DNA from: Tepidiformaceae bacterium
Lineage (GTDB): Bacteria; Chloroflexota; Dehalococcoidia; Tepidiformales; Tepidiformaceae
DNA length: 64,000 bases
Assembly: GCA_958295975.1 (NCBI GenBank)
Contig: OY282446.1
Span: forward strand, 595,289-659,288
Direction of reading: 5' to 3'
Position 1 is the stretch's first letter; the number at the start of each line of letters is the position of its first letter. The translations under genes were made by a program, and so were the position numbers. This document shows positions 1,000-62,982 of the stretch, one piece after another. The notes under the pieces are model-generated. The model was given only the letters and a program-made list of their open reading frames with translations. It was not told the origin of the DNA and ran no database searches.

Positions 1000-1205
1000 A
1001 CCCCGTCTGCGGGCGGGAGGTCGCGGAGCGCGACGTCGACGCCCTCGCCGGGCGGCTCCCCGGCGGCGCGCGCGAACGGCCATCGGGCGCGGGCGTCAAG
1101 CGCTTCTACGGCGGCCGCTGGCACTACTTCTGCTCCGTCCAGTGCCGCCTCGCCTTCATGGCCACCCCCGACGCCTTCGGGGGCGGCGCGAACGAGCCCT
1201 CCTAA
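948..1205 (+). CDS. small YHS/TRASH-type metal-binding domain protein (start uncertain)
   Basis: DPVCGREV...KRFYGGRWHYFCSVQCRLAF fits the YHS/TRASH pattern (DPVCG...yFCS..C...F). No ATG lies nearby. An in-frame GTG at 948 or CTG at 990 are the only start candidates. The ORF overlaps the 3' end of the ACAD gene. Confidence 0.4.
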   Translation: MSRPRRRHARRGAALALDPVCGREVAERDVDALAGRLPGGARERPSGAGVKRFYGGRWHYFCSVQCRLAFMATPDAFGGGANEPS

Positions 1206-3145
1206 TCGGGAAGGGCGAACTCCACGCTCCAGAGATGCCCCGTGTCGTCGTACTGCCCCGTGAGGATGCGGGCGATGCCGTAGTCCGGCAGCTCGACGGT
1301 CGTCAGGCACTTCCCGTCGAACCGCGTGGCCTGCCGGTCGAAGAAGAAGTCGAGGTTGTCGAACCCGTACTGCTGCCGCTCCTGAGGCAGATCGGACGGA
1401 TCGTCGGGGTCGACATGCAGGAAGAACCACGCCTCCGTATCCGCCGGGGCGCACGGCTCTCTGACGTAGACCAGCGTGCGCCCGTTGACGTACACGTCGA
1501 AGGCGCCGCTGGCCGCCAGTTCGCCGGATTCATCCGTCAGCTCGTTCAGGTAGCGGTTCACGTTGGCGCGGTAGCCCGCTTCGTCGAAGCGCCATCCGAT
1601 GGGGAAGCGGTAGACGCCGCCATCGGAAAACTCGCCCACGACTTCCACGCCGGGCAGGAGGTGGATCGTGTCGGCGTATTCGGCCTGGGGGGAGAGGCCT
1701 CCGGCGACGAGCACGACATGCGCGCCTCCCCTCGGGATGCGGGAAACCAGACTCCTGAAGCCTTCCCCGCTCCAGCGGTACCGCCCCTCGCTTGCCGGCA
1801 CCCCGCTGCGGTACCACACCAGATCAAACAGTGGACTGTAGACTGTTCCTGAAACGGGGTTATTCTCCAGCCAGGACAGGGTTTCCGATTCATCCCACTC
1901 GGCAGTATGATGAAGCCACTCCGGATACCCGCGATCCAATCCTTCGGAAGTATCGGATATGTCTTTTTGGATCGTGAATCCGAAATGAATGATACATCCG
2001 ATCATGATGACAGAAACTAGCACCCATTGCAATAGATTACTACTTCTTGACATTAACCTGTCTCCCCAATAAGAAGTCACCAGAATCATTGGGACGTAAA
2101 CAGGCAAAAGATACCGGCCATCTATTGAAGTTCCTGACGTCAGTGGAGTGATGACGGCTATCATTCCCAAATAGATGAGAACGAACAATCCAAGAGGAAG
2201 TACTGGACTGGAGAATGAGCGCAGACACACTCTTTCATCTCTCCTTGATATAACATACGAAAACACTATTACAAAGAAAATAGTAAAAGGAATGTAGAGG
2301 AAGTTCATGAGGTCATGTTCGGTAGGAATAATCCATTGGTCGAATACCGAGAGAATTTGTCGCACGGAATCCAGGATGCTCTGATCTGATGCGAATCTCC
2401 TGTCTCCAATCAACGTCTGCGCCGTTGTCTGATTGTAGACCAGTGCTCCCGCCAATGGGATCGAGGATATGGCTCCAAAGGCCAGAGAAGACTGCAATTT
2501 CTCACTGAATGTCCCGCGTCGCAGGATCATCATCAACAATCCGGCGGTCATTCCAAAGACTCCGGTGTAGCGGGTGACCGCCGCCAGTCCGAAAAGCACT
2601 GCTCCCAGCACCATCGGCGTCCTCTTCCCCGATTGCAAAAACGAATCCATCCGGAACAGGGCCATGAGGGTCAACAGAATGAACAACGGTTCGGTCATTA
2701 GATAGGATGACCTGTCGATCAAGGGGTACGCGACGAGTACGGCGAATGTGCCACCCAGCGCCAGCAGCTGTGAACGGAGGGTACGGGTCAGCCAGATTCC
2801 GGATACCAGGACGATCAACCCGAAGGATGCGGCGTTGATCCACCGCCCCGCCTCTTCCGCATCCATTCCAATCAGTTCGAAGAGTGCAAGCAGCATGGGG
2901 AAAAGCGGTGGCCAGTACACGTAGGGCTTTCCGTCGAAGCTCTTCAGGCCGGCTCCGTCGGCCAGGTTCTCAGCCGCTGCCAAATAGTACGTGGCGTCGA
3001 AACCGACGGCCGCGCCGTACGTCCAGGTGCGCACGAGAATGTGCGTCGCGCCCAACGCCGCCATGACCACGACCAGCACCAGCGTGATGCGATGGTTCGG
3101 GGGGAAAGGCAGCTGGCGCATGGCTCGAATCATGGATCGCCTCAT
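1202..3145 (-). CDS. GT-C fold (ArnT/PMT_2-like) membrane glycosyltransferase with unassigned C-terminal module, copy 1
   Basis: 647-aa ORF with many hydrophobic helices. The N-terminal region TWTYGAAVGFDATYYLAAAENLADGAGLKSFDGKPYVYWPPLFPMLLAL is typical of GT39/GT83-like enzymes. The ATG at 3143-3145 overlaps the TGA of copy 2 (ATGA). Confidence 0.8.
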   Translation of the reverse strand: MRRSMIRAMRQLPFPPNHRITLVLVVVMAALGATHILVRTWTYGAAVGFDATYYLAAAENLADGAGLKSFDGKPYVYWPPLFPMLLALFELIGMDAEEAGRWINAASFGLIVLVSGIWLTRTLRSQLLALGGTFAVLVAYPLIDRSSYLMTEPLFILLTLMALFRMDSFLQSGKRTPMVLGAVLFGLAAVTRYTGVFGMTAGLLMMILRRGTFSEKLQSSLAFGAISSIPLAGALVYNQTTAQTLIGDRRFASDQSILDSVRQILSVFDQWIIPTEHDLMNFLYIPFTIFFVIVFSYVISRRDERVCLRSFSSPVLPLGLFVLIYLGMIAVITPLTSGTSIDGRYLLPVYVPMILVTSYWGDRLMSRSSNLLQWVLVSVIMIGCIIHFGFTIQKDISDTSEGLDRGYPEWLHHTAEWDESETLSWLENNPVSGTVYSPLFDLVWYRSGVPASEGRYRWSGEGFRSLVSRIPRGGAHVVLVAGGLSPQAEYADTIHLLPGVEVVGEFSDGGVYRFPIGWRFDEAGYRANVNRYLNELTDESGELAASGAFDVYVNGRTLVYVREPCAPADTEAWFFLHVDPDDPSDLPQERQQYGFDNLDFFFDRQATRFDGKCLTTVELPDYGIARILTGQYDDTGHLWSVEFALPD

Positions 3146-5106
3146 TGCTCCCGGCCTGTGGAGAGGGCGAACTCCACGCTCCAGAGACGCCCCGTGTCAT
3201 CGTACTGTCCCGTACGGATGCTGGCGATGCCGTAGGCGGGCAGCTCGACGGTCGTCAGGCACTTCCCGTCGAACCACGTGGCCTGCCGGTCGAAGAGGAA
3301 GTCGAGGTTGTCGAACCCGTATTGCTGGCGCTCCTGAGGCAGGTCGGCGGGATCGTCGGGGTCGATGTGCAGGAAGAACCACGCCTCCGTATCTGCCGGG
3401 ATGCACGGCTCCCTGACGTAGACCAGCATGCGCCCGTTGACGTACACGTCGAAAGTGGAACTGGCCGCCAGCTCGCCGGATTCCTCCGTCAGTTCGTTCA
3501 GGTAGCGGTTCACGTTGGCGCGGTAGCCCGCTTCGTCGAAGCGCCATCCGGCGGGGAAGCGGTAGACGCCGCCATCGGAAAACTCGCCCACGACTTCCAC
3601 GCCGGGCAGGAAACGGATCGTGTCGGCGTATTCGGCCTGAGGGAAGGAGCCTCCGGAGACGAGCACGGCATGCGCGCCTTCCCTCGGGATGCGGGAAACG
3701 AGGCTTCTGAGGTTTTCCCCGATCCAGTGGTACCGCCCCTCGCTTGCCGGCGCCCCGCTGCGATACCACACCAGGTCAAACGCTGGGCTGGAGACTATCC
3801 CGGAAACAGGGTTAGTCTCCAGCCAGGAAAGGGTTTCCGATTCATCCCATTCAGCAGTATGATGAAGCCACTCCGGATACCCGCGATCCAATCCTTCGGA
3901 AGTATCGGATATATCTTTTTGGATCGTGAATCCGAAATGAATAATACATCCGATCATGATGACAGAAACTGGCACCCATTGCAATAGATTACCGCTATTT
4001 CTCGACATTAACCTGTCTCCCCAATAAGAAGTCACCAGAATCGTTGGGACGTAAACAGGCAAAAGGTACCGGCTATCTATGGGGGTTCCTGCCGCCAATG
4101 GAGTGATGACAGTGATCATTCCCAAGTAGATGAGAATGAACAATCCAAAAGGAAGAAATGAACTGGAAAGTAAACGTGAATATTCTCTTTTTCCATTAAC
4201 CTTCAATAAAGCGTAAAAAGTCACCATCACAAAGAAAAGGATAAATGGGATATATAGAAAATTCACAAAGTTGTATTCAGTGGGAATAATCCATTGATCG
4301 AACACTGAAAGAATCTGTTTCATGGAATCCAGGATGCTCTGACCCGATGCAAATTCCCTGCCTCCGGTCAGCGTCTGCGCTGTTGCCTGGTTGTAGGCCA
4401 GTGCTCCCGCCAATGGGAGCGAGGAGATGGCTCCAAAAGACAGAGAGGACTTCAGTTTCTCGTTGAACGTCCCGCGTCGCAGGATCACCATCAACAACCC
4501 GGCGATCATTCCGAAGATTCCGGTGTAGCGGGTCACCGCCGCCAGTCCGAAAAGCACTGCTCCCAGCACCATCGATGTTCTCTTCCCCGATTGCAGAAAC
4601 GACTCCATTCGGAATAAGGCCATGAGGGTCAACAGGATGAACAACGGTTCGGTCATCAGGTAGGATGACCTGTCGATCAAGGGGTACGCGATGAGTACGG
4701 CGAACGTGCCGCCCAGCGCCAGCAGCCGCGAACGGAGAGTTCGGGTCAGCCAGATTCCGGATACGAGGACGATCAACCCGAAGGATGCGGCGTTGATCCA
4801 CCGTCCCGCCTCTTCCGCACCCAACCCAATCAGCTCGAAGAGCGCGAGCAGCATGGGAAAAAGCGGCGGCCAGTGCACGTAGTGGAGACCTTCGAAGCTC
4901 TTCAGGCCAGCTCCGGCGGCCAGGTTCTGAGCCGTGGCCAAATAGTGCGTGGCGTCGAAACCGACGGCCGCGCCGTACGTCCAGGTGCGCACGAGGATGT
5001 GCGCCGTGCCCAGCGCCGCCATGGCCACCACCAGCAGCACGGGCAGGGTCTGGCGGTTCGGGCGGAAGCGCGCGACGGACGCGATCACGCGGGACGCCTG
5101 CGGCAT
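3142..5106 (-). CDS. GT-C fold (ArnT/PMT_2-like) membrane glycosyltransferase, copy 2
   Basis: This is a paralog of 1202..3145 with long near-identical stretches. I chose the start at ATG 5104-5106 (MPQASRVIASVARFRPNRQTL...) because it aligns with the N-terminus of copy 1. The longer ORF to 5223 would overlap the divergent CocE gene and its RBS. Confidence 0.8.
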   Translation of the reverse strand: MPQASRVIASVARFRPNRQTLPVLLVVAMAALGTAHILVRTWTYGAAVGFDATHYLATAQNLAAGAGLKSFEGLHYVHWPPLFPMLLALFELIGLGAEEAGRWINAASFGLIVLVSGIWLTRTLRSRLLALGGTFAVLIAYPLIDRSSYLMTEPLFILLTLMALFRMESFLQSGKRTSMVLGAVLFGLAAVTRYTGIFGMIAGLLMVILRRGTFNEKLKSSLSFGAISSLPLAGALAYNQATAQTLTGGREFASGQSILDSMKQILSVFDQWIIPTEYNFVNFLYIPFILFFVMVTFYALLKVNGKREYSRLLSSSFLPFGLFILIYLGMITVITPLAAGTPIDSRYLLPVYVPTILVTSYWGDRLMSRNSGNLLQWVPVSVIMIGCIIHFGFTIQKDISDTSEGLDRGYPEWLHHTAEWDESETLSWLETNPVSGIVSSPAFDLVWYRSGAPASEGRYHWIGENLRSLVSRIPREGAHAVLVSGGSFPQAEYADTIRFLPGVEVVGEFSDGGVYRFPAGWRFDEAGYRANVNRYLNELTEESGELAASSTFDVYVNGRMLVYVREPCIPADTEAWFFLHIDPDDPADLPQERQQYGFDNLDFLFDRQATWFDGKCLTTVELPAYGIASIRTGQYDDTGRLWSVEFALSTGREQ

Positions 5107-5176
5107 GGCCGCAGTATATCGCCCCCGCCCCCGCCGGTCGTGTACCCTTGCCCCGCGCAACGCGAAGGAGGCCCCC

Positions 5177-6931
5177 GTGAGTGAGCTGTCCGCCGCCGAC
5201 GTCATCGTCGACGAGAACGTCATGATCCCGATGCGCGACGGCGTGCGGCTGCAGGCCGACGTCCACCGCCCCGCCGGCGGCGGGCCCGTGCCCGCGCTTC
5301 TCTCCCGCTCCCCCTACGGGCGCAACCCCGGCGGACGGCCCGGCACGGGCGCCGACTTCTGGGTGCCCCGCGGCTACGCCTACGTGACCCAGGACTGCCG
5401 CGGGCGCTTCGGCTCCGAGGGCGACTACACGCCCCACCTGTACGAGGGCCCCGACGGCTACGACACGGTCGAGTGGATCGCCGCCCAGCCCTGGTGCGAC
5501 GGCGCCGTGGGCACGGTCGGCCAGTCCTACCTGGGCGCGGACCAGTACCAGCTCGCGCCCCACAATCCGCCCCACCTGAAGGCGCTGGCCCCCGTCTCCG
5601 GCACCTGCGACCACCGCCAGAGCTGGACCCGCCACGCGGGCGGCGCGCTGGAGCACGGCTGGATGGTGCCCTACTCCCTGCTCAAGGGCCGCAACACGCT
5701 CGAGCGCAAGGGCCTCACAGGCGCGGAGATGGAGACGCTCGAGGGCTACCTCGATCCGCCCGACGAGCACGGCTTCTTCGCCCAGCCGCTCACGCCCGAG
5801 GGCTACGCCCACGTGCCCCTCACGGACTGGTCCGAGCGCATGAAGGACAGCGCCCCCTACTTCGCCGAGTACCTCGAACATCCCGACGACGACCCCTACT
5901 GGTGGGAGATCAACGTGCGCCGCGGCTTCCACACCGTGGACGCGCCCATGCTCCACTTCGGCTCCTGGTACGACATCTTCCTGGAGGGCACGCTCGCCGG
6001 CTTCGAGGGCGTCAACGCCCTGGGCGGGCCCAACGCGCGCGGCCGGCAGCGCCTGCTCGTCGGCCCCTGGGGCCACATCGGCTACTCCGTGCCCACCACC
6101 GGCGGCTGCGGCGAGCTCGACTTCGGCCCCGAGGCCGCCATCGACTTCATGGAGATCCAGGAGCGCTGGTTCGGCCATTGGCTGAAGGGCGAGGACACCG
6201 GCGTCATGGACGAGGCCCCCGTCCGCATCTTCGTCATGGGCGAGAACCGCTGGCGCGACGAACGAGAGTGGCCCCTCGCGCGCACGCGCTACACCCCCTG
6301 GTACCTGCACAGCGGCGGCGCCGCCAACGGCCTCGACGGCGACGGCGCGCTCAGCCCCGAGGCGCCCGCCGTCGAGCCGCCCGACCGCTACGTCTACGAC
6401 CCGCGCGACCCCGTCCCCAGCCTGGGCGGCAACAACCTCATCATCCCCCGCGGCGTCTTCGACCAGCGCCCCGCCGAACGGCGCGACGACGTGCTCGTCT
6501 ACACCGGCGAGGCGCTGACGGAGCCGCTGGAGGTGACCGGGCCCCTGCGCGTCACGCTCTGGGCCGTCTCCTCCGCCGTCGATACCGACTTCACGGCCAA
6601 GCTGGTGGACGTGCACCCCGACGGCTACGCCCGCAACCTGCAGGACGGCATCATCCGCGCGCGCTACCGCGATTCGGCCAGCTCGCCCAGCCTGCTCACG
6701 CCCGGCCAGCCCTACCGCTACGAGATCGACCTCTGGGCCACCAGCCACGTCTTCCTGCCGGGGCACCGCATCCGGCTGGAGATCAGCTCCTCCTGCTTCC
6801 CGCGTTTCGACCGCAACCCGAACACGGGAACGCCCGTGGAGAGCGAGGCGAACCTCGTGCCCGCCGCGCAGCAGGTGCTGCACGACGCGCACCATCCCTC
6901 GCACGTCACCCTGCCGGTGATCCCGCGCTGA
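5177..6931 (+). CDS. CocE/NonD family hydrolase (X-Pro dipeptidyl-peptidase S15-like)
   Basis: GTG at 5177 is preceded by GAAGGAGG. Motifs SRSPYGRN, YVTQDCRGRFGSEGDY and GTVGQSYLGADQ (GxSYxG nucleophile elbow) are characteristic of the family. Confidence 0.85.
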   Translation: MSELSAADVIVDENVMIPMRDGVRLQADVHRPAGGGPVPALLSRSPYGRNPGGRPGTGADFWVPRGYAYVTQDCRGRFGSEGDYTPHLYEGPDGYDTVEWIAAQPWCDGAVGTVGQSYLGADQYQLAPHNPPHLKALAPVSGTCDHRQSWTRHAGGALEHGWMVPYSLLKGRNTLERKGLTGAEMETLEGYLDPPDEHGFFAQPLTPEGYAHVPLTDWSERMKDSAPYFAEYLEHPDDDPYWWEINVRRGFHTVDAPMLHFGSWYDIFLEGTLAGFEGVNALGGPNARGRQRLLVGPWGHIGYSVPTTGGCGELDFGPEAAIDFMEIQERWFGHWLKGEDTGVMDEAPVRIFVMGENRWRDEREWPLARTRYTPWYLHSGGAANGLDGDGALSPEAPAVEPPDRYVYDPRDPVPSLGGNNLIIPRGVFDQRPAERRDDVLVYTGEALTEPLEVTGPLRVTLWAVSSAVDTDFTAKLVDVHPDGYARNLQDGIIRARYRDSASSPSLLTPGQPYRYEIDLWATSHVFLPGHRIRLEISSSCFPRFDRNPNTGTPVESEANLVPAAQQVLHDAHHPSHVTLPVIPR

Positions 6932-10833: not shown

Positions 10834-13167
10834 TCACTCCCCGTCGGGCACGGCGAACTCCACCTCCCACAACGGGCCAGTCCCGTCGTACTGGCCCGTG
10901 CGCACGCTGGCGATGGGGTAGGCGGGCAGGCGTGCCACCGCCACGCAGTTCCCGTCGATGCGCTCCCCGCTCCGCGCCAGGGTGAAGTCGAGGTTCTCGA
11001 AGCCATGCACCCGGCGAGGCGTAGGCAGGTCATCCGGATCGACCGGCTCGACGTGGAGGAAGAAGCGCGCGGCGGCCTCCTCCGCGGAGCACCCCTCCCG
11101 CAGGTACGTGAGCGCGCGTCCGTCGCGGTAGACGCTGAAGACGGAGCGGGCCAGCGGCTCGCTCGCCAGCGCCTCGCGCCGGGCACGCGCAAGGTCGGAC
11201 CGCGCAGGGTCGGGCGTTGCGGGAGCGATGACCCGCCCGTCGGGCGTGAACTCCGCTTCCCAGTGGACGCCGGCGTCGCTGAGCTGGCCCGTGTGGATGC
11301 TGGCGATGGGGTAGTCGGGCAGGCGCGCGATGGCGATGCAGTTCCCGTCGATGCGGGCATCGAAGGGGAAGTCCCGGTTGTCGAAGCCGTACTCCGCGCG
11401 GCCGGGGGGCAGGTCGTCGGCGTCGACGGGCCGGACGTGCAGGAAGAAGCGACTTTCAATGTCCTCCGCCGGGCAGCCATCCCGGAGGTACGTCAGCTCG
11501 CTCCCGTTGCGATGGATGTGGTAGGTGGAACGGACCAGGGGCTCGGTGGCCAGCGCCGCCCGCCGGAGACCGCCGAAATACGCCACCGGATCGACGAAGC
11601 AATCGAGCGTGACAGCATGGATGCGGCTGACGTAGGCGCCGTCCCGGAGGGGAGCGGGACACGGCTGGCCCCGGCGAAGCTCGTAGAAGTTGCGCTCCCC
11701 GGAACGGAAGTCGCGCGTGTTGGTGAACCGCTTGCGGTCATCCGCGTGGAGCAGCCAGCGGCTCTGCACGTACCGGATCGTGACAAAAAGCCTCCCGGAA
11801 TGGTCCCCGGCGATGGCGCCCAGAACGCCCCCCGCGGACTGTCCCGAGAAATTCAGGTCGTAGCGGGAGGCCAGCCGCTCCGGCGTGGTCCGGTCCACGA
11901 GGACGGTGAAATAGTTGTCCTGCTTCGGGTGGACGCGGACCATGGAGACGGCGGTCACGGCGATGGCCGCGCCCGCCAGCGCATACGTCCCCGCGCGCAT
12001 CCACCGCCCGCGCATGGAGCGCGCCAGTTGGTGAAGCCCGAAGATCGCCAGCAGGAGCAGGGGCGCGTACAGGAAGTACAGATGCCGCCAGCCGCTGGAG
12101 ACGTTGCTCTCCAGAACGACGACGGCCACGACCGTGGCCACGGGCAGCGCCAGCAGCAGGAAACCGAAGCGCGGCGGGCCGTTGCGGAACACGTCGCGGG
12201 GGCGGCGCAGCCCGCGCCACGCCAGCGCGATGGCCCCCAGCGCGGCCAGCAGGAGCACGGCGGGCGGCGTCGTGATCCCCACCCACACGGGCACGTAGTC
12301 GAACGGCGGCCCGTCCGGGGCGTACAGCCATTCGCCACGGAACAGGTTGTAGCCCAGCCAGGGGTGAGAGCTGAGCGTCCCGACCAGCTCCGTAAACTGC
12401 CCGATCGGATCGATCCAGAGCGCCGGCAGCGAGGCGTAGTACGTGAGCATGGCGGTCAGCGCGAAGCCCCCGGCGGTCAGCAGGATGCGACTCCGCTCTT
12501 CCCGGCCGGACGCGGCCAGCAGATCCAGCCCGCGCAGGGCGAGCACGGCGGCGAAGAGGATGATCCCCATGATGCGCAGGTTGACGAGGATGCCGATGCC
12601 CGCCCCGCACAGCAGAAAGGCCCCCAGCGTGTCCCGCCGGAAGGCGCGATGGGTGAGGTAGAGCGCAATCATGAACATGGCCGCGAAGGGGATGTCCTTC
12701 GGGTTGAAGAAGGAGTGCGCGTAGAGACGCGGATGCAGCACGAACAGCACCATTCCCGCGAGCGCAAGGACTCTGCTGTTGAATATCCGGTAGACCAGGA
12801 GGTAACAGAAGACTCCGCTGACGAGGAAGAACAGGTGCGTGAGCATGTGCCGGCTGAGCCAGACGTCCCGACGGTCATCCAGACCGGGAATGCGTTCGAC
12901 GAGCACGAACGGCGCTGCGAAGACCGCGCCGTAGTAGCGGTCAAAGGGAGCGTACAACTGGCCGAAAGCGTGCTCGCCGCCGCCCCCGACATAATCGAGT
13001 GCCGCGTTCCCGATTTTCTGCTGGCTCCCCTCGTCGGACCCGACGCCGTAGTCGTCGAGCACGAGCGCGCCGACCAGCAGGAACCCGGCGCACACGGCCG
13101 CGAGTCCCCAGTGGCGGCGCGCGTGGTGGGCGATGCGCTCCGCGGCGGCGGCCGGGCTGTGCGTCAT
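10834..13167 (-). CDS. GT-C fold (PMT_2/ArnT-like) membrane glycosyltransferase with two C-terminal module copies
   Basis: 777 aa and polytopic. It contains the NPKDIPFAAMFMIALYL-type motif. The C-terminus carries two copies of the same ~100-aa module found in 1202..3145 and 3142..5106. GC-rich throughout. Confidence 0.8.
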   Translation of the reverse strand: MTHSPAAAAERIAHHARRHWGLAAVCAGFLLVGALVLDDYGVGSDEGSQQKIGNAALDYVGGGGEHAFGQLYAPFDRYYGAVFAAPFVLVERIPGLDDRRDVWLSRHMLTHLFFLVSGVFCYLLVYRIFNSRVLALAGMVLFVLHPRLYAHSFFNPKDIPFAAMFMIALYLTHRAFRRDTLGAFLLCGAGIGILVNLRIMGIILFAAVLALRGLDLLAASGREERSRILLTAGGFALTAMLTYYASLPALWIDPIGQFTELVGTLSSHPWLGYNLFRGEWLYAPDGPPFDYVPVWVGITTPPAVLLLAALGAIALAWRGLRRPRDVFRNGPPRFGFLLLALPVATVVAVVVLESNVSSGWRHLYFLYAPLLLLAIFGLHQLARSMRGRWMRAGTYALAGAAIAVTAVSMVRVHPKQDNYFTVLVDRTTPERLASRYDLNFSGQSAGGVLGAIAGDHSGRLFVTIRYVQSRWLLHADDRKRFTNTRDFRSGERNFYELRRGQPCPAPLRDGAYVSRIHAVTLDCFVDPVAYFGGLRRAALATEPLVRSTYHIHRNGSELTYLRDGCPAEDIESRFFLHVRPVDADDLPPGRAEYGFDNRDFPFDARIDGNCIAIARLPDYPIASIHTGQLSDAGVHWEAEFTPDGRVIAPATPDPARSDLARARREALASEPLARSVFSVYRDGRALTYLREGCSAEEAAARFFLHVEPVDPDDLPTPRRVHGFENLDFTLARSGERIDGNCVAVARLPAYPIASVRTGQYDGTGPLWEVEFAVPDGE

Positions 13168-39267: not shown

Positions 39268-39337
39268 GGTCACCTCCGGCGCGCCACGAGCGGTCGCGCG
39301 CGCCGATTGTACCGCGCGTTGGTACTATAGCGCCAAG

Positions 39338-40468
39338 TCAGTCTGAGAATAAATTAAATTCCTCTGGGTCGGAGTTGTCGACAAAATCCGGGTCGCGCCT
39401 ATACAAGAGATTCGAAAGAACCTCCTCGGGTATTGATTCGCCAGAACGAGTTCGCACCACCATAGGGTCGGGCTGGGTAGTCACAACAAATTGGTCAATT
39501 ATCCTCCGTTGCTTTTTTTCGCCAAAAGATCGCCACGCAGCAGGAGATATCATAATACCTTCAGTTTCATCTAGAATTGTCTTGGACAACAGGGCGGATG
39601 CAAGATTCGTATCTTCTTCCCAGAATGCGGGAATATAGACATGGACTAGGGAATCCCATCCTTTAGGGAAAGAAAGAATTGCAACATTTCTGTCAGGTTC
39701 TGGATAGACTGTCACGAACATTAGTATCTCGGAAGGAGATCGAATAATCCCTCTTTCTGCAATTTTCCTCTCTTCTCGTGGCGTACCCATATTCCTTCCT
39801 TCGCGGTAAGTAACGACATTGGCTGCAATTTTTGGGACACTTTTGATAACAATAATTCGATGTTCCATACCAGAATTTCTTCCATTACGCACGTGAATCA
39901 ATGCATTTTCTACCTGAATTTTGAATCTTTCTGCCAGAGCTTTTCGCTCGGCACTAATAGAAATCCTCGAAGAAAATACAGTCGTTTGGAACTCTCGCCC
40001 GAGTTCTTTATAAAACCTAAGTATCACACACTTCTTGAAGTAGTCAAACAGAACAGTACGATAAGCAAGCAGAAGGCAATGTTCTTCATTGGCAGCATCG
40101 AGGTTTCCTTTTTCGATTTGGGAAAACGTGCTATCATCGTGACGCTTGCATGCCCATTTTCCCGTGATGATCGGATTGCTAATACTACGATACTGACGGA
40201 AAATTTTATCTCTTTCATTTTCCATAGCACTCGCCATGGAGAAGTCTTTAATCACGTCAATGGACAAGATTTGCAATTTCCTCCTCTTATCCGCGATCAA
40301 GATGAGCTTAGCCTTCTGGATCGAGTGCGCCTCAACGAGTTGCACACTGCATTCAGATTGTGGTCCAATGAGACAGCGAGCCTCAGCGTTCCTAGCCCGC
40401 AGATATGCGGATTCCGCGCGCCTGAAGTCCTCGCGGGTAGGGCCATGCGGCCCCAAGTCCTTTTCCAT
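39338..40468 (-). CDS. AT-rich orphan protein (376 aa), function unknown
   Basis: It is the only long ORF in a ~1.1-kb segment that hand-counts at ~42-50% G+C, against ~75% in the flanks. The composition is non-repetitive. The N-terminus has C-x8-C-x7-H (CLIGPQSECSVQLVEAHSIQK). I recognised no family. Confidence 0.65.
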   Translation of the reverse strand: MEKDLGPHGPTREDFRRAESAYLRARNAEARCLIGPQSECSVQLVEAHSIQKAKLILIADKRRKLQILSIDVIKDFSMASAMENERDKIFRQYRSISNPIITGKWACKRHDDSTFSQIEKGNLDAANEEHCLLLAYRTVLFDYFKKCVILRFYKELGREFQTTVFSSRISISAERKALAERFKIQVENALIHVRNGRNSGMEHRIIVIKSVPKIAANVVTYREGRNMGTPREERKIAERGIIRSPSEILMFVTVYPEPDRNVAILSFPKGWDSLVHVYIPAFWEEDTNLASALLSKTILDETEGIMISPAAWRSFGEKKQRRIIDQFVVTTQPDPMVVRTRSGESIPEEVLSNLLYRRDPDFVDNSDPEEFNLFSD

Positions 40469-40582
40469 AGGGGCTATCGTAGCACAGGATGGCTACGGGG
40501 CAAAGCGGTCCTCATCGCCGATACGCAAAATCGACGCCCTGCGCCCCGCCATCATCATCCGCTATCATCGCGCGCGACCGCC

Positions 40583-41626
40583 ATGATCGCCGTGCTGCAC
40601 GGACTCGACGAACTGCGCCTGCGCCGCCGCCTGCGCGCCATCCGCGGCGACGACGCGGACGTGACGCTGCTCGACGGGCGCGACGCCAAGCCGGAGGACA
40701 TCCTCGCGCCCGCCTTCACCGCGCCCTTCCTCGCCCCGCGCCGCGCCGTCATCGTGGAGGGGCTGCTGGAGCGCTTCGAGTCGGGGCGCGGGAGCGGGCG
40801 CGCGCCCCGCGCCAACGCCTTCGACCCGCTGATCGAGGGGCTGGCCGCGGGCGTCCCCGACACGACCGCGCTGGCGTTCGTGGACGGACCGCTGGGGGCG
40901 CGCAATCCCCTGCTGCGGCGGCTGGAGGAGGCGGGCGCGACCGTCGAGCACTTCCCCGAGCTGAAGCGCGGGGAGCTGGCGGCGTTCGTGCGCGAGGAGG
41001 CGGAGCGCCAGGGCGTGGCCCTGCGGCGGGGACGGTCGGCGCGCCCGCTGCCCGCGGACGAGGAGTGGCGGCGTCCGCGCGAGGACGATCCCGCCCAGCT
41101 GCTGGCCGCGCTCCATCCGAACACGCTCGAGCTGGCGCGCGAACTGGAGAAGCTGGCGCTCTACACGATGGGCCGCGAGGCCACCGTGGACGACGTGGAC
41201 CTGCTCTGCGGGGGCGAGCGCGGGGCCACCATCTGGGAGCTCGTGGACGCGGTGCTGGACGGGGAGACGGCGAAGGCGCTGCAGGCCCTGCGCTTCCTGC
41301 GCTCGCGGGGGGAGACGGTGAACGGCCTGCTGGCGCAGCTGGCGGCGGCCTACCGCCCGCTGGTGACGGTGGGGGAGATGCTGGAGGAGGGCGCGGGCGC
41401 GGAGGAGATCGGCAAGGCCATCCGGCGGCCCTGGCCGCGGCTGCGCGACCAGGCCATCCAGCGCGCGCGGCGGCTGGGGCGCGGGGGCGTGCTGCGCGCC
41501 TACGAGATCCTGGCGGCGGCGGACGGCGGCGTGAAGCGCGGCGAGCTGCGCGACGAGGTGGCGCTGGAGGTGGCCGTCACGCGGCTGCTGGCGCTCGCCC
41601 CGCGCGCGGGCCGCCGGGCGTCTTAA
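40583..41626 (+). CDS. holA: DNA polymerase III delta subunit
   Basis: MIAVLHGLDELRLRRRL...LDGRDAKPEDIL...PFLAPRRAVIVEG... and a C-terminal helical region typical of HolA. Confidence 0.75.
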   Translation: MIAVLHGLDELRLRRRLRAIRGDDADVTLLDGRDAKPEDILAPAFTAPFLAPRRAVIVEGLLERFESGRGSGRAPRANAFDPLIEGLAAGVPDTTALAFVDGPLGARNPLLRRLEEAGATVEHFPELKRGELAAFVREEAERQGVALRRGRSARPLPADEEWRRPREDDPAQLLAALHPNTLELARELEKLALYTMGREATVDDVDLLCGGERGATIWELVDAVLDGETAKALQALRFLRSRGETVNGLLAQLAAAYRPLVTVGEMLEEGAGAEEIGKAIRRPWPRLRDQAIQRARRLGRGGVLRAYEILAAADGGVKRGELRDEVALEVAVTRLLALAPRAGRRAS

Positions 41627-41652
41627 GGGGCGCGGGGTGCCCGGCGGCGGCC

Positions 41653-42288
41653 CTAGCCGCTGGGGCGGATGGAGGTGATGAAGCGGCCCTGCACGCGCAC
41701 GTCCGAGGCATCGGCGTAGATGGGCGGCATGGCCGAGTTGGCGGGCTGCAGGCGCACGCGGTCGCCCTCGCGGTAGAGCCGCTTGAGCGTGACCTCGCCG
41801 CGGTCCTCCAGCCACACGGCCACCTTCTCGCCGTCGGCGGCGGTGGCGGCGGGTTCGAGGAAGACGATGTCGCCGTCGGCGATGAGGTCCTCGATCATGG
41901 ATTCGCCCTTCACGCGCAGGGCGAAGACGTTGCGGCGGCCGCGCAGCATCTCCTCGGTGACGGTGACGGTGTCCTCGACGTCGGCCTGCCAGCGCTCGCT
42001 GGCGGGGACGGGGATGGGCTGGCCGGCGGCGATGGCGCCGAGCACGGGCACGTCCACGGTGCGCGCGCGACGGCGGCCCTCCAGCAGCTCGATGCCGCGC
42101 GAGACCTCGCGGTCGCGCCGCAGCACCCCCTTCTCCTCCAGCCGCCGCAGGTTGTAATCCACCACGGACGTGCTGCTGATGCCGCAGCCGCGCTGGATGT
42201 CGCGGATGGACGGCGGGTAGTCCTTCTCGTCGAGGAAGTCGCGGATGTACTCGAAGATGCTGCTCTGACGGGCGGAAAGTTCACTCAT
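41653..42288 (-). CDS. lexA: LexA repressor
   Basis: MSELSARQSSIFEYIRDFLDEKDYPPSIRDIQ... is a winged HTH, followed by an S24 peptidase C-terminus (ALRVKGESM...). GGAGGA lies 6 nt upstream of ATG 42286-42288. Confidence 0.9.
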   Translation of the reverse strand: MSELSARQSSIFEYIRDFLDEKDYPPSIRDIQRGCGISSTSVVDYNLRRLEEKGVLRRDREVSRGIELLEGRRRARTVDVPVLGAIAAGQPIPVPASERWQADVEDTVTVTEEMLRGRRNVFALRVKGESMIEDLIADGDIVFLEPAATAADGEKVAVWLEDRGEVTLKRLYREGDRVRLQPANSAMPPIYADASDVRVQGRFITSIRPSG

Positions 42289-42314: not shown

Positions 42315-42404
42315 GCCATTGAACACCGTCGAATCCTTAACGTCAAAGCCCGTTCCGCACGAACGGCGGTTGCGGTCCCGCGCGCGCCGTGTCTGGATGG
42401 ACGC

Positions 42405-48352: not shown

Positions 48353-49180
48353 ATGCCCGAACCGCGCTCGATCTACCCGAAGCACTTCTCCCAGGGCCCG
48401 CCCGTGCCCCGCAGGAGGACGGGCTTCATCCTGATGCCGTTCAAAGGTGAGTTCGAGCCTGTCCACGAAGCCATCAAGGCGGCAATCGAGGATGCCAATC
48501 TTGAGCCGTTGCGGGCTGACGATGTCTTCAGCACGCAGGCGGGGATGGAGAAGATTCTGCGGGGAATCGCCGAGGCGGAGGTCGTCGTGGCCGACATGTC
48601 GGAGAGAAACGCGAACGTCTTCTACGAGGCGGGCATCGCCCACATGGCAAAGGAGAACGTTGTTCTTCTGACTCGGGACCGTAAAGACTTCCCGTTCGAC
48701 CTCCAGCACATCGACCACATCATCTACGAGCCGAGCGAGAAGGGCCTTCGGGAGCTTACGGAGCGGCTCGGCCAAGTTATCCGCAACCTTCCTCCCGAAC
48801 CAGCATTCGAGCTACGCAGCGCCAGCATCGCTGATCTATCCCCAGTACAAATTAAGCGTGAAATGCGTCGACTGCTCCATTCCTGCAAGCAGCAATGGTT
48901 GGATGACGTTATTCCTGCCCAAATCTCAGTGTTTGAAAAGGATTTTGAAGAGCGTATATTTCGTCACCAGTCGGATGTGGAGCAAGCGAAAGTGATCGAA
49001 GAGTCGATTCGTGTCATTCAGCCTGCTTTTTTGCGATCATGGCGGCCCATCGAAGAGATTGGATTCTCCATTATTGACCGCACGCATAGCGACATTTATC
49101 CCGGATTGATAGATGCTATAGAGCGTGCTTATTCTATCTCAATTATTCCCGGAAATCTTGATTGGATTAGTAGTTACTGA
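48353..49180 (+). CDS. nucleoside 2-deoxyribosyltransferase/TIR-like domain protein (N-terminal part of a TGA-interrupted frame)
   Basis: FILMPFKGEFEPVHEAIKAAI...VVVADMSERNANVFYEAGIAHMAKENVVLLT...FPFDLQH resembles the Rossmann-like NDT/TIR-like fold signature (D..g.n.NV.fE.G.A...gk.vi). Start is ATG 48353, or GTG 48350. It ends at TGA 49178-49180. Confidence 0.65.
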   Translation: MPEPRSIYPKHFSQGPPVPRRRTGFILMPFKGEFEPVHEAIKAAIEDANLEPLRADDVFSTQAGMEKILRGIAEAEVVVADMSERNANVFYEAGIAHMAKENVVLLTRDRKDFPFDLQHIDHIIYEPSEKGLRELTERLGQVIRNLPPEPAFELRSASIADLSPVQIKREMRRLLHSCKQQWLDDVIPAQISVFEKDFEERIFRHQSDVEQAKVIEESIRVIQPAFLRSWRPIEEIGFSIIDRTHSDIYPGLIDAIERAYSISIIPGNLDWISSY

Positions 49181-49186
49181 CCTCTC

Positions 49187-49750
49187 TTGGCACTCCGAAC
49201 ATGGATAGTCTGGGGGGCATATGCACTGGATTCCGAAAATTGGGAAATCGTCGAGACATTACTCCACAGCGAGATTGATTTTGGATATAACCAAAAGAGT
49301 TCGTTCTCCGAGTTCCGGTCGGCATTTTATCCACAGGCTTCAGGTAGAAATATTAAGCTAGCGATAGACTCTGTCTATCAGCAAGGAGAACAGTTGGCCA
49401 ATTCTCACTTTGGAGACACTGAGGCAATGAATGGTTTTATTAGTTTTTGGCTATTTTCTACTGATATTATGGCAGATGCCTCGGATTCTTGGATGCTCGG
49501 TGCGTGGTTCCGTTCTCCTGTAGGACAATTTGAAAAACTTGCTTCTCGTCTTGAACATGATTCTGAATACGCACGGAATTTTACTCAAGCCGTGACCCGT
49601 ACCAGCCCGGCATCGCTAAATCAGCGCTGGCAGGGTGGCAATCCCCTTAATCTTGGCAACCTCCGTAACCGCCTTTTGGATCGTGGGCGGTTGGGATCGA
49701 GAACATCGGCTTGGGATCTTCCCCAAATCCCTCAGCGCTTCGCGGAATAG
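49187..49750 (+). CDS. hypothetical protein in the same frame as 48353..49180 (possible C-terminal continuation)
   Basis: Only a TTG start is available (49187), with no RBS. It lies 6 nt after the TGA and in the same reading frame (frame 2). It appears alpha-helical and I recognised no family. Confidence 0.45.
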   Translation: MALRTWIVWGAYALDSENWEIVETLLHSEIDFGYNQKSSFSEFRSAFYPQASGRNIKLAIDSVYQQGEQLANSHFGDTEAMNGFISFWLFSTDIMADASDSWMLGAWFRSPVGQFEKLASRLEHDSEYARNFTQAVTRTSPASLNQRWQGGNPLNLGNLRNRLLDRGRLGSRTSAWDLPQIPQRFAE

Positions 49751-62811: not shown

Positions 62812-62888
62812 GGGCCATTAGCTCAGCTGGTTAGAGCGCAGTCCTGATAAGACTGAGGTCTCTGGTTCGAGTCCAGAATGGCCCACCA
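62812..62888 (+). tRNA. tRNA-Ile (anticodon GAT)
   Basis: GGGCCAT/ATGGCCC acceptor stem, anticodon loop CCTGATAAG, TPsiC arm GGTTCGAGTCC, encoded CCA. Confidence 0.95.
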
Positions 62889-62906
62889 CCGCCGTGGCCA
62901 GGGCGC

Positions 62907-62982
62907 GGGGCCGTAGCTCAGCTGGGAGAGCGCCGCCTTTGCAAGGCGGAAGTCGGGAGTTCGATTCTCCCCGGCTCCACCA
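62907..62982 (+). tRNA. tRNA-Ala (anticodon TGC)
   Basis: GGGGCCG/CGGCTCC acceptor stem with a G3:U70 pair, anticodon loop CTTTGCAAG, GGTTCGATTCC-like TPsiC arm, encoded CCA. Confidence 0.95.

Follow-up and report, generated by a model that had tools for sequence, protein, structure and literature searches.

The 64-kb stretch of a Tepidiformaceae (Chloroflexota) genome analyzed here, referred to as the window, contains an AT-rich open reading frame (ORF) between adh and holA that we call gene X; its 376-aa product is referred to as protein X. A preliminary description of the window, made from its letters alone, had pointed to this ORF as a compositionally foreign gene inserted between core genes, and our data indicate that both the ORF (39338..40468) and its contrast with its neighbors are real. 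Gene X has a G+C content of 45.1% and a G+C content at third codon positions (GC3) of 0.44, compared to 72.6% and 0.97 for adh, within a window that is 71.7% G+C as a whole. Codons ending in A or T make up 56% of gene X but 3% of host genes, and 20% of the codons in gene X belong to codon types with zero use in 2,218 neighboring host codons. Measured in intervals of 200 nt, the G+C content is 40–47% across positions 39400–40400 versus 72–79% in the flanks, and the switch is completed within 100–200 nt on both sides. This contrast is not a product of chance: six other alleles of gene X, found on related contigs, have a GC3 of 0.47–0.51 against 0.96–0.98. The GC-richer start of the gene that had been noted before is also present, with the first 30–55 codons at 0.585–0.63.

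We defined the borders of the foreign DNA by comparing occupied slots with five empty slots of relatives (L009, L010, L011, L015, and L018; L-numbers denote compared related contigs or genomes and P-numbers denote homologues of protein X). In the empty genomes only ~100 bp separate the start codons of adh and holA, and a cassette of ~1.25 kb stands in place of the 27–45 nt that lie there between the -10 boxes of the two genes. Gene X itself is separated from adh by 64 nt and from holA by ~114 nt, with the true start of holA being the ATG at 40583, which corrects the preliminary description. No mobility gene lies near gene X, the only tRNAs of the window are at 62.8 kb, and meaningful repeats are absent from the flanks, the sole inverted match, of 18 nt, being located in native GC-rich flanking DNA, in agreement with what had been reported for the locus. 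Furthermore, the cassette shows neither terminal inverted repeats nor target-site duplications nor a tRNA that would mark transposition or integration.

Upstream of gene X lies a TG-extended -10-like box that is kept in a TGYGCTAYGRT-like form at equal distance from the gene in six of seven highly divergent alleles, with L044 containing CGTGGTACCAT instead. Since a generic promoter and terminator scan, which was uninformative, did not call this box, the evidence for it is its conservation. This conservation suggests that gene X has its own promoter and produces a leaderless or near-leaderless mRNA. With respect to SOS control, we found no LexA-box-like site in the promoter of gene X, and matches were at chance level.

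Homology to the antiphage protein Rugutis

Queried by itself, protein X returned nothing meaningful from Pfam, NCBIfam, PHROGs, or PADLOC. The gene is nevertheless not the orphan it had been taken for: 18 close homologues were found in large protein collections, and an exhaustive HMMER search extended these to a superfamily of approximately 200 cluster representatives, 300–400 aa in length and aligned over residues ~25–335. A profile search of a word-indexed protein collection added almost no further members, the close-family alignment had no match in JGI metagenomes or IMG/VR, and searches of the PDB sequences with the single sequence and with two profiles returned nothing significant. Two Listeria phage records hold a member of the superfamily.

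A tblastn search with protein X itself gave one marginal plasmid match and no phage match. The same search with P0050, a central member of the superfamily, recovered plasmid homologues, five of which are on Lactococcus dairy plasmids. Among these is a 359-aa "SEC-C domain-containing protein" carried by plasmid pUCCL633A of strain UCCL633, which we identified as Rugutis by its plasmid, its length, and its N-terminal SEC-C motif; Rugutis was thus reached by the P0050 query only. Rugutis (pUCCL633_059, 359 aa, N-terminal SEC-C; Grafakou et al., NAR 2024, PMC11381338; PNAS 2025, PMC12184496) is an experimentally validated single-gene antiphage protein of the abortive infection (Abi) type encoded on Lactococcus plasmid pUCCL633A (PMC11381338).

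Direct comparison shows that protein X is homologous to Rugutis. BLASTP aligned the two proteins with E = 3e-9 and 20% identity over 297 aa, the profile of the close family matched Rugutis in hhalign with 97.9% probability (E = 6e-13), and the superfamily profile matched it with 100% probability (E = 1e-42). Both proteins are products of single genes of similar size, their homology spans ~290 residues, and both give confident structural models without a neighbor in the PDB. They share the motifs C..C..AHS.Q, C..HD..F..IE, YRA, (F/Y)P(D/E), and (T)EN..(I)(S/N)P..W as well as a C-terminal (N/D)LF; indeed, none of the core motifs is missing from Rugutis, whose C-terminus reads ...YPGYDLFKL. The residues conserved across 59 diverse members are C32, C40, H48, C107, H110, D111, F115, Y136, P256, E303, and P309 (numbering of protein X), and protein X holds every one of them. 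The series Cys, Cys, His, Cys, His is invariant in 44 diverse N-terminal domains. LF is found among the final eight residues of 97 of 168 superfamily proteins, and we regard the (N/D)LF end as a hallmark of the superfamily.

The two proteins also differ. The N-terminal SEC-C zinc motif is the only annotated feature of Rugutis, and protein X has no SEC-C match. As the motif occurs in only 15 of the 168 collected superfamily proteins, it is a branch-specific accessory rather than a defining feature of the superfamily. Annotation leads obtained for the 59 relatives, namely PADLOC "E2", "E1-E2", and "PDC-S12" and NCBIfam "YchJ/SWIM", all map to this 20–40-residue motif in a few members and not to the core, and were rejected. 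Protein X has a longer and nearly invariant acidic tail compared to Rugutis. Lastly, Rugutis is plasmid cargo flanked by insertion sequence (IS) elements in a low-GC Firmicute, whereas gene X is located on the chromosome of a Chloroflexota bacterium with a 72%-GC genome, between core genes, and exists in multiple alleles.

Alleles and the empty state of the adh–holA slot

We used holA to scan a single genome from each species, which identified Tepidiformaceae as the host lineage and allowed the occupancy of the slot to be surveyed. Where Tepidiformaceae species representatives have retained the adh–holA junction, the slot is empty. On metagenomic contigs, alleles of gene X occupy exactly this slot, and their products are 74, 69, 61–62, 51, 51–52, and 47–48% identical to the protein of the window. 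The junction is empty in most genomes and filled by an allele in others, and the slot holds at least seven intact alleles that are 46–74% identical to one another and all keep the core residues. Orthologues of native composition at the same locus across the lineage would have counted against the earlier reading, and this is only half the case: alleles do occur at the same locus, but their composition is not native and most of the lineage is without the gene.

The flanks of these alleles are far more similar than the alleles themselves. Between L001 and L005 the flanks are 99–100% identical at the amino acid level and protein X is 52% identical; the corresponding values are 99% and 61% for L001 and L004, and 98–100% and 47% for L002 and L046. 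The flanks of the empty L009 are 98.5–99.3% identical at the nucleotide level to those of L001, L004, and L005, which bear three alleles 52–61% identical to one another, and the empty L010 is 98% identical to the X-bearing L044. Because empty and X-bearing flanks are near-identical, one species contains the null state together with at least three deep alleles. Overall, as in a hotspot, flanks that are 98.5–100% identical surround a slot that is either empty or filled with alleles 47–61% identical.

The block of divergence is sharply bounded. It starts on the holA promoter side and ends ~80 nt before the stop codon of gene X, and the part coding for the tail and the 3' untranslated region (UTR) is 88–94% identical in most pairs of alleles. 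The tree of the alleles disagrees with that of the flanking genes: the alleles of L001, L002, and the window form one group and those of L005 and L046 another, both across the flank groups. Such a conflict implies that alleles have been exchanged by recombination or that the polymorphism predates the species.

The ratio of nonsynonymous to synonymous divergence (dN/dS) over the whole gene is 0.17–0.30, and synonymous divergence (dS) among alleles ranges from 0.66 to saturation. The alleles are under purifying selection, and these values indicate that they are old, functional lineages; the claim that the gene was recently acquired does not stand up to alleles 46–74% identical in one slot with this much synonymous divergence and no drift toward the G+C content of the host. 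By the Nei–Gojobori method we found no region with dN/dS >1, and hence no sign of positive selection. All alleles have a GC3 of 0.44–0.51, and polarized synonymous changes are balanced, with GC-to-AT versus AT-to-GC counts of 15 versus 18, 39 versus 35, and 22 versus 24. Because of this balance, the alleles show no amelioration toward the host and are at an AT-rich compositional equilibrium, which simple recent transfer does not explain. Family members elsewhere are only mildly AT-shifted (54% versus 68% and 55% versus 60%).

Classic hotspots flanked by core genes, whether in chromosomes, phages, or satellites, hold different, unrelated systems. The X slot resembles them in that its position between conserved genes is fixed and its content varies among near-identical strains, but it is either empty or filled by deeply diverged alleles of a single family, which all share the same alien composition. 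Compared with such hotspots, for which the P2/P4 hotspots are cited (PMC13586616), the X slot looks more like an allelic series of an immune gene than a cargo hotspot. A second variable slot lies a few kb away, where a gene for a 497-aa N6_N4 methyltransferase–HNH fusion is inserted after an MMPL gene in some contigs of one species group, L001 (14741-16234) and L005 (8636-10129), and is absent at the same position in L004 and L002.

Protein architecture, genomic settings, and neighboring features

Modeling of protein X with AlphaFold2 (AF2) from a deep alignment gave a confident structure, with a mean predicted local distance difference test score (pLDDT) of 90.7 and a predicted template modeling score (pTM) of 0.90. 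The model begins with a beta-rich Cys/His module at the N-terminus, continues through a long hairpin of helices (residues 128–194) into a C-terminal alpha/beta domain, and closes with a confident tail after a linker of low confidence. Foldseek found no neighbor of the full model in the PDB or BFVD and none in the PDB for a separate model of the N-terminal domain (pLDDT 76.5), with the qualification that Foldseek is weak on very small motifs. In the predicted structure, protein X thus shows a novel fold with an invariant Cys/His center. The coordinates of the gene, its cassette, and the regions of the protein are collected in Table 1.

Table 1. Features of gene X and its cassette, in positions of the window.
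Feature	Position	Strand	Basis and remarks
Gene X, 376 aa	39338..40468	-	ATG start, intact, single ORF
Whole foreign cassette (gene X, its own 5' region, short 3' UTR)	~39314..40559	.	Comparison of empty and occupied slots; composition profile
Retained native adh -10 box TACAAT	39306..39311	-	Directly outside cassette; in empty and occupied slots alike
Retained native holA -10-like box TATCAT	40563..40568	+	Directly outside cassette, 14 nt 5' of holA ATG (40583); in empty and occupied slots alike
TG-extended -10-like box TGTGCTACGAT	40476..40486	-	7 nt upstream of gene X start codon; conservation across alleles
Codons 29–135, N-terminal Cys/His module (C-x7-C-x7-H ... C-x2-H-D-x3-F-x2-IE, NEEHCLLLAYR)	40064..40384	-	Conservation
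Codons 136–253, most variable part among slot alleles	39710..40063	-	Pairwise identity; AF2 secondary structure
Codons 254–328, C-terminal alpha/beta core (VTVYPE, LSFPKGW, PAFWEE, LLSKTILEETENIMISP..W)	39485..39709	-	Alignment; identity 0.61–0.77
Codons 357–376, almost invariant acidic tail DPDFVDNSDPEEFNLFSD	39341..39400	-	Allele identity 0.75–0.88, dN/dS ~0–0.05

Variability among the alleles is concentrated in residues 61–90 and 136–253, and the conserved parts are residues 46–60, 106–135, 254–328, and 357–376. Within the Cys/His module the mean identity of alleles is 0.58–0.77 except in residues 61–90, and dN/dS is 0.07–0.24 in its conserved parts, from which we infer a putative metal-binding or catalytic center. 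Here the preliminary description had read the spacing of the first motif as C-x8-C-x7-H, which is in fact C-x7-C-x7-H (C32, C40, and H48), and had guessed at a resemblance to HNH_2 nucleases. No HNH-type profile (Pfam HNH, HNH_2, HNH_5, and others) matched protein X at E up to 10 or any of the 59 relatives at E up to 0.01, and Foldseek, within the limits given above, found no structural neighbor, so that this reading was dropped for lack of support. A beta-hairpin and helix bearing C107, H110, and D111 are nevertheless present in the AF2 model, and the profile search of PDB sequences returned a non-significant match (E = 0.28) to an "HNH nuclease domain-containing protein".

The most variable part of the protein comprises the hairpin formed by helices 128–160 and 163–194 together with the first beta strands. 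Its mean pairwise identity is 0.27–0.53, and 0.27–0.37 in the hairpin, versus 0.66–0.88 in the conserved blocks. The regional peak of dN/dS, 0.4–0.6, falls in residues 196–253 and is still below 1. This pattern makes codons 136–253 a candidate specificity or sensor region. The alpha/beta core that follows aligns to TIFPD ... TTENLVINPSSW of Rugutis.

In the close family, the (N/D)LF-type motif sits within the almost invariant acidic tail DPDFVDNSDPEEFNLF. The tail of protein X has a pLDDT of 86–93, and the confidence with which AF2 models it suggests that it docks in cis. The acidic stretch and (N/D)LF end resemble beta-clamp-binding motifs (QL[SD]LF) and the acidic-hydrophobic tail of single-stranded DNA-binding protein (SSB). 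Gene X adjoins holA, which encodes the delta subunit of the clamp loader. This adjacency is probably coincidental because relatives in other genomes are not beside holA.

Overall, relatives of gene X are found in or next to defense loci, namely BREX-related DUF499 systems, PifA-like, PARIS-like, and Hachiman/TIR genes, and Abi genes. In a BREX-related (BR/Hma) system, the genes for P0017 and P0018, which are 38% identical to protein X, lie between those for the HEPN-DUF499 ATPase and the DUF1156 methyltransferase; this island also contains Dcm/Vsr and AAA_15/DUF3226. A member 23% identical to protein X accompanies a Schlafen/AlbA_2 gene and adjoins an integrase and IS elements. Plasmid-borne members adjoin pifC and a P-loop NTPase gene, lie near TIR, Fic, and Hachiman genes, adjoin a gene for an "Abi family protein", or are near AbiH; also among the plasmid-borne members, one in a P4-like element is beside an AAA ATPase and DUF4435 pair, and one in Pseudoalteromonas stands alone between housekeeping genes. 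On L007, a 101-aa HTH_3 (XRE-type) gene (11114-11419) lies 13 nt downstream of the gene for P0016, which is 41% identical to protein X, and the pair is inserted among metabolic genes; the HTH_3 gene may be a regulator partner in this branch.

BREX-related DUF499 (BR/Hma) loci are reported to host embedded stand-alone auxiliary or backup effectors at the type of position taken by P0017 and P0018 (PMC12839542), between the HEPN-DUF499 and DUF1156 genes. The effectors cataloged there are HNH, PD-(D/E)XK, HEPN, TOPRIM/OLD, PIN, and Schlafen proteins, whereas the X family is none of these. Furthermore, gene X stands alone in the window, with no BR system nearby.

The window contains further features apart from gene X. 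On the plus strand, 48400-49750 is a second sharp AT-rich island (43–48% G+C) with part of an ORF that begins MPEPRSIYPKHF...ILMPF...NVFYEAGIAHMAKENVVLL and ends at 49180, followed by an ORF of 187 aa (49187..49750). Pfam returned nothing for this island and PADLOC a weak match to a TIR effector model (E = 6e-4); it is possibly another foreign defense cassette. Two tandem paralogous membrane-protein genes on the minus strand (1202-3145 and 3142-5223; 647 and 693 aa) have sub-threshold matches to PMT_2 glycosyltransferases, and only their central thirds (~1800–2400 and ~3800–4300) fall to 39–45% G+C. The segment 61600-63600 is 58–60% G+C and contains tRNA-Ile(GAT) and tRNA-Ala(TGC) at 62812–62982; since this pair is typical of the 16S–23S spacer, the segment probably represents an rRNA operon rather than a foreign island. 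Beyond holA, the spacing between holA and lexA is only 27 nt (41626-41653), and the window is without the 327-aa ABC_tran/oligo_HPY gene found between lexA and holA in the closest relatives examined, namely L001, L002, L004, L005, L044, and L046. Approximately 50 nt upstream of lexA (start codon 42309), CGAACGGCGGTTGC (42360-42373) has two mismatches to the Gram-positive-type LexA box and may be a lexA autoregulatory site, equal-quality matches occurring at chance frequency in the window.

A probable single-gene defense function and its alternatives

Judged by its sequence, protein X adds a highly divergent new member to a defense family that is known but mechanistically unsolved. We put the probability that it is a single-gene antiphage (Abi-type) protein of the Rugutis family, encoded in a multi-allelic hotspot of the chromosome, at roughly three in four. 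The earlier proposal of a stand-alone, compositionally foreign gene for defense or abortive infection is supported by the homology to Rugutis and by the relatives in defense islands.

What is known of Rugutis suggests how protein X might work. Rugutis acts after DNA injection. It protects at low multiplicity of infection (MOI), but at high MOI the cultures either stop growing or collapse, a phenotype that is Abi-like (PMC11381338). All mutants of phage c2 that escape Rugutis map to the ATPase domain of the large terminase (TerL), and induction of c2 TerL lowers viability specifically in cells expressing Rugutis (PMC12184496). A 2026 review lists the mechanism of Rugutis as unknown. By analogy, protein X would be made at a low level and kept inactive until, late in infection, a phage protein activates it, which in Rugutis would be the ATPase domain of the large terminase. 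Activated protein X would then stop growth or kill the cell, aborting the phage burst. The conservation pattern is consistent with a C32/C40/C107/H110 cluster that would bind metal and with H48, D111, Y136, and E303 forming an effector site. The variable middle (residues ~136–253) may set which phage variant is recognized, and the conserved acidic (N/D)LF tail may dock on the body of the protein as a regulatory or structural latch. Strains would swap alleles by homologous recombination through the conserved flanks, and balancing selection driven by phages would keep the alleles in the population.

Avs proteins are large STAND NTPases with recognizable effector domains. Protein X, with 376 aa, no NTPase domain, and an unrelated fold, is not a member of this group, and the likeness is an analogy of logic: in both, a late conserved phage protein (the large terminase) would activate a suicidal or arresting effector. 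Avs have been named as terminase-sensing immune proteins (PMC12184496).

Several points weigh against the antiphage interpretation. Protein X is only 20% identical to Rugutis and is without its SEC-C motif, and for this reason its function, and especially the specificity of its trigger, may differ. All experimental data concern Rugutis, and protein X and the other Chloroflexota members are known from sequence alone. TerL is not fully established as the direct activator because mutated c2 TerL is still toxic when co-expressed with Rugutis (PMC12184496). No known catalytic fold was detected in protein X, and metal binding and an enzymatic site are deduced from conservation only. Since no region has dN/dS >1, diversifying selection on a sensor surface is not demonstrated. 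Lastly, the evidence from genomic context is consistent but amounts to guilt by association.

Among the alternatives, the one that fares best casts protein X as a toxin or addiction module, or as a non-defense zinc protein of stress response or regulation, whose link to phages is incidental, as in locus stabilization or conflict between strains. Rugutis constructs are unstable or cannot be introduced in some strains (PMC11381338), which hints at intrinsic toxicity, an HTH_3 gene lies downstream of one homologue, and multi-allelic polymorphism is also typical of polymorphic toxin/immunity loci. However, the cassette contains no ORF for an antitoxin or immunity partner, and gaps of only 64 nt (adh) and ~114 nt (holA) leave no room for one. 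Protein X has no secretion or delivery domain, and its homologue has direct phage-resistance data together with TerL escape mutants. We therefore consider this alternative unlikely. A housekeeping function does not apply because the gene is absent from conspecific genomes.

It is less likely still that gene X is a free-standing selfish gene, similar to those of homing endonucleases, that targets the holA–adh site, cuts empty sites, and is copied in during repair. The fixed intergenic site, the presence/absence polymorphism among near-identical genomes, the single ORF with its own promoter, the invariant Cys/His motif, and the non-significant profile match to an HNH-nuclease chain (E = 0.28) are all in keeping with homing. 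Yet protein X matches no nuclease or homing-endonuclease family in sequence or structure, and active homing would give near-identical copies, whereas the copies at this site are 46–74% identical with saturated dS. In addition, relatives elsewhere occupy many unrelated sites, typically defense islands and plasmids, and a homologue gives phage resistance from a plasmid (PMC11381338). We found the remaining alternative, recently imported and functionless or decaying foreign DNA, an orphan yet to ameliorate, hardly credible and already largely refuted: the GC3 of 0.44 versus 0.97, the A/T-ending codons (56% versus 3%), and the absence of the gene from most relatives speak for it, but seven same-slot alleles are all intact and keep the core residues with dN/dS of 0.17–0.30, their dS runs from 0.66 to saturation, their polarized synonymous changes are balanced with no ongoing amelioration, and the promoter box and tail are conserved.

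The composition of gene X may itself have a function. The basis for this thought is that the alleles keep a GC3 of ~0.47 in a genome with a GC3 of 0.97 despite saturated synonymous divergence and with balanced changes. We tentatively propose, as a possibility that we hold to be rather improbable, that the alien composition is an actively maintained property of an ancient, species-spanning balanced polymorphism. With its rare codons, the AT-rich sequence would gate the expression of a toxic immune protein, either through translation limited by rare tRNAs or through silencing of AT-rich DNA, and infection would relieve the gate. Phages would then maintain many recognition alleles and a null allele at one chromosomal slot, in a manner similar to the upkeep of alleles of the major histocompatibility complex (MHC).

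Taken together, this locus adds Chloroflexota and a location on the chromosome to the known range of the family of Rugutis, whose antiphage activity was validated recently and whose fold is new. The locus defines the invariant Cys/His core and the C-terminal (N/D)LF motif of the superfamily. It also provides a natural allelic series of at least seven alleles and a null allele on near-isogenic backgrounds. This series separates the regions in which the protein accepts substitutions (residues ~61–90 and ~136–253) from those in which it does not, and it can guide mutagenesis and work on trigger specificity. Finally, the slot is a clean case of foreign-looking composition that persists at equilibrium in a 72%-GC genome, which challenges the view that AT-rich means recent transfer.

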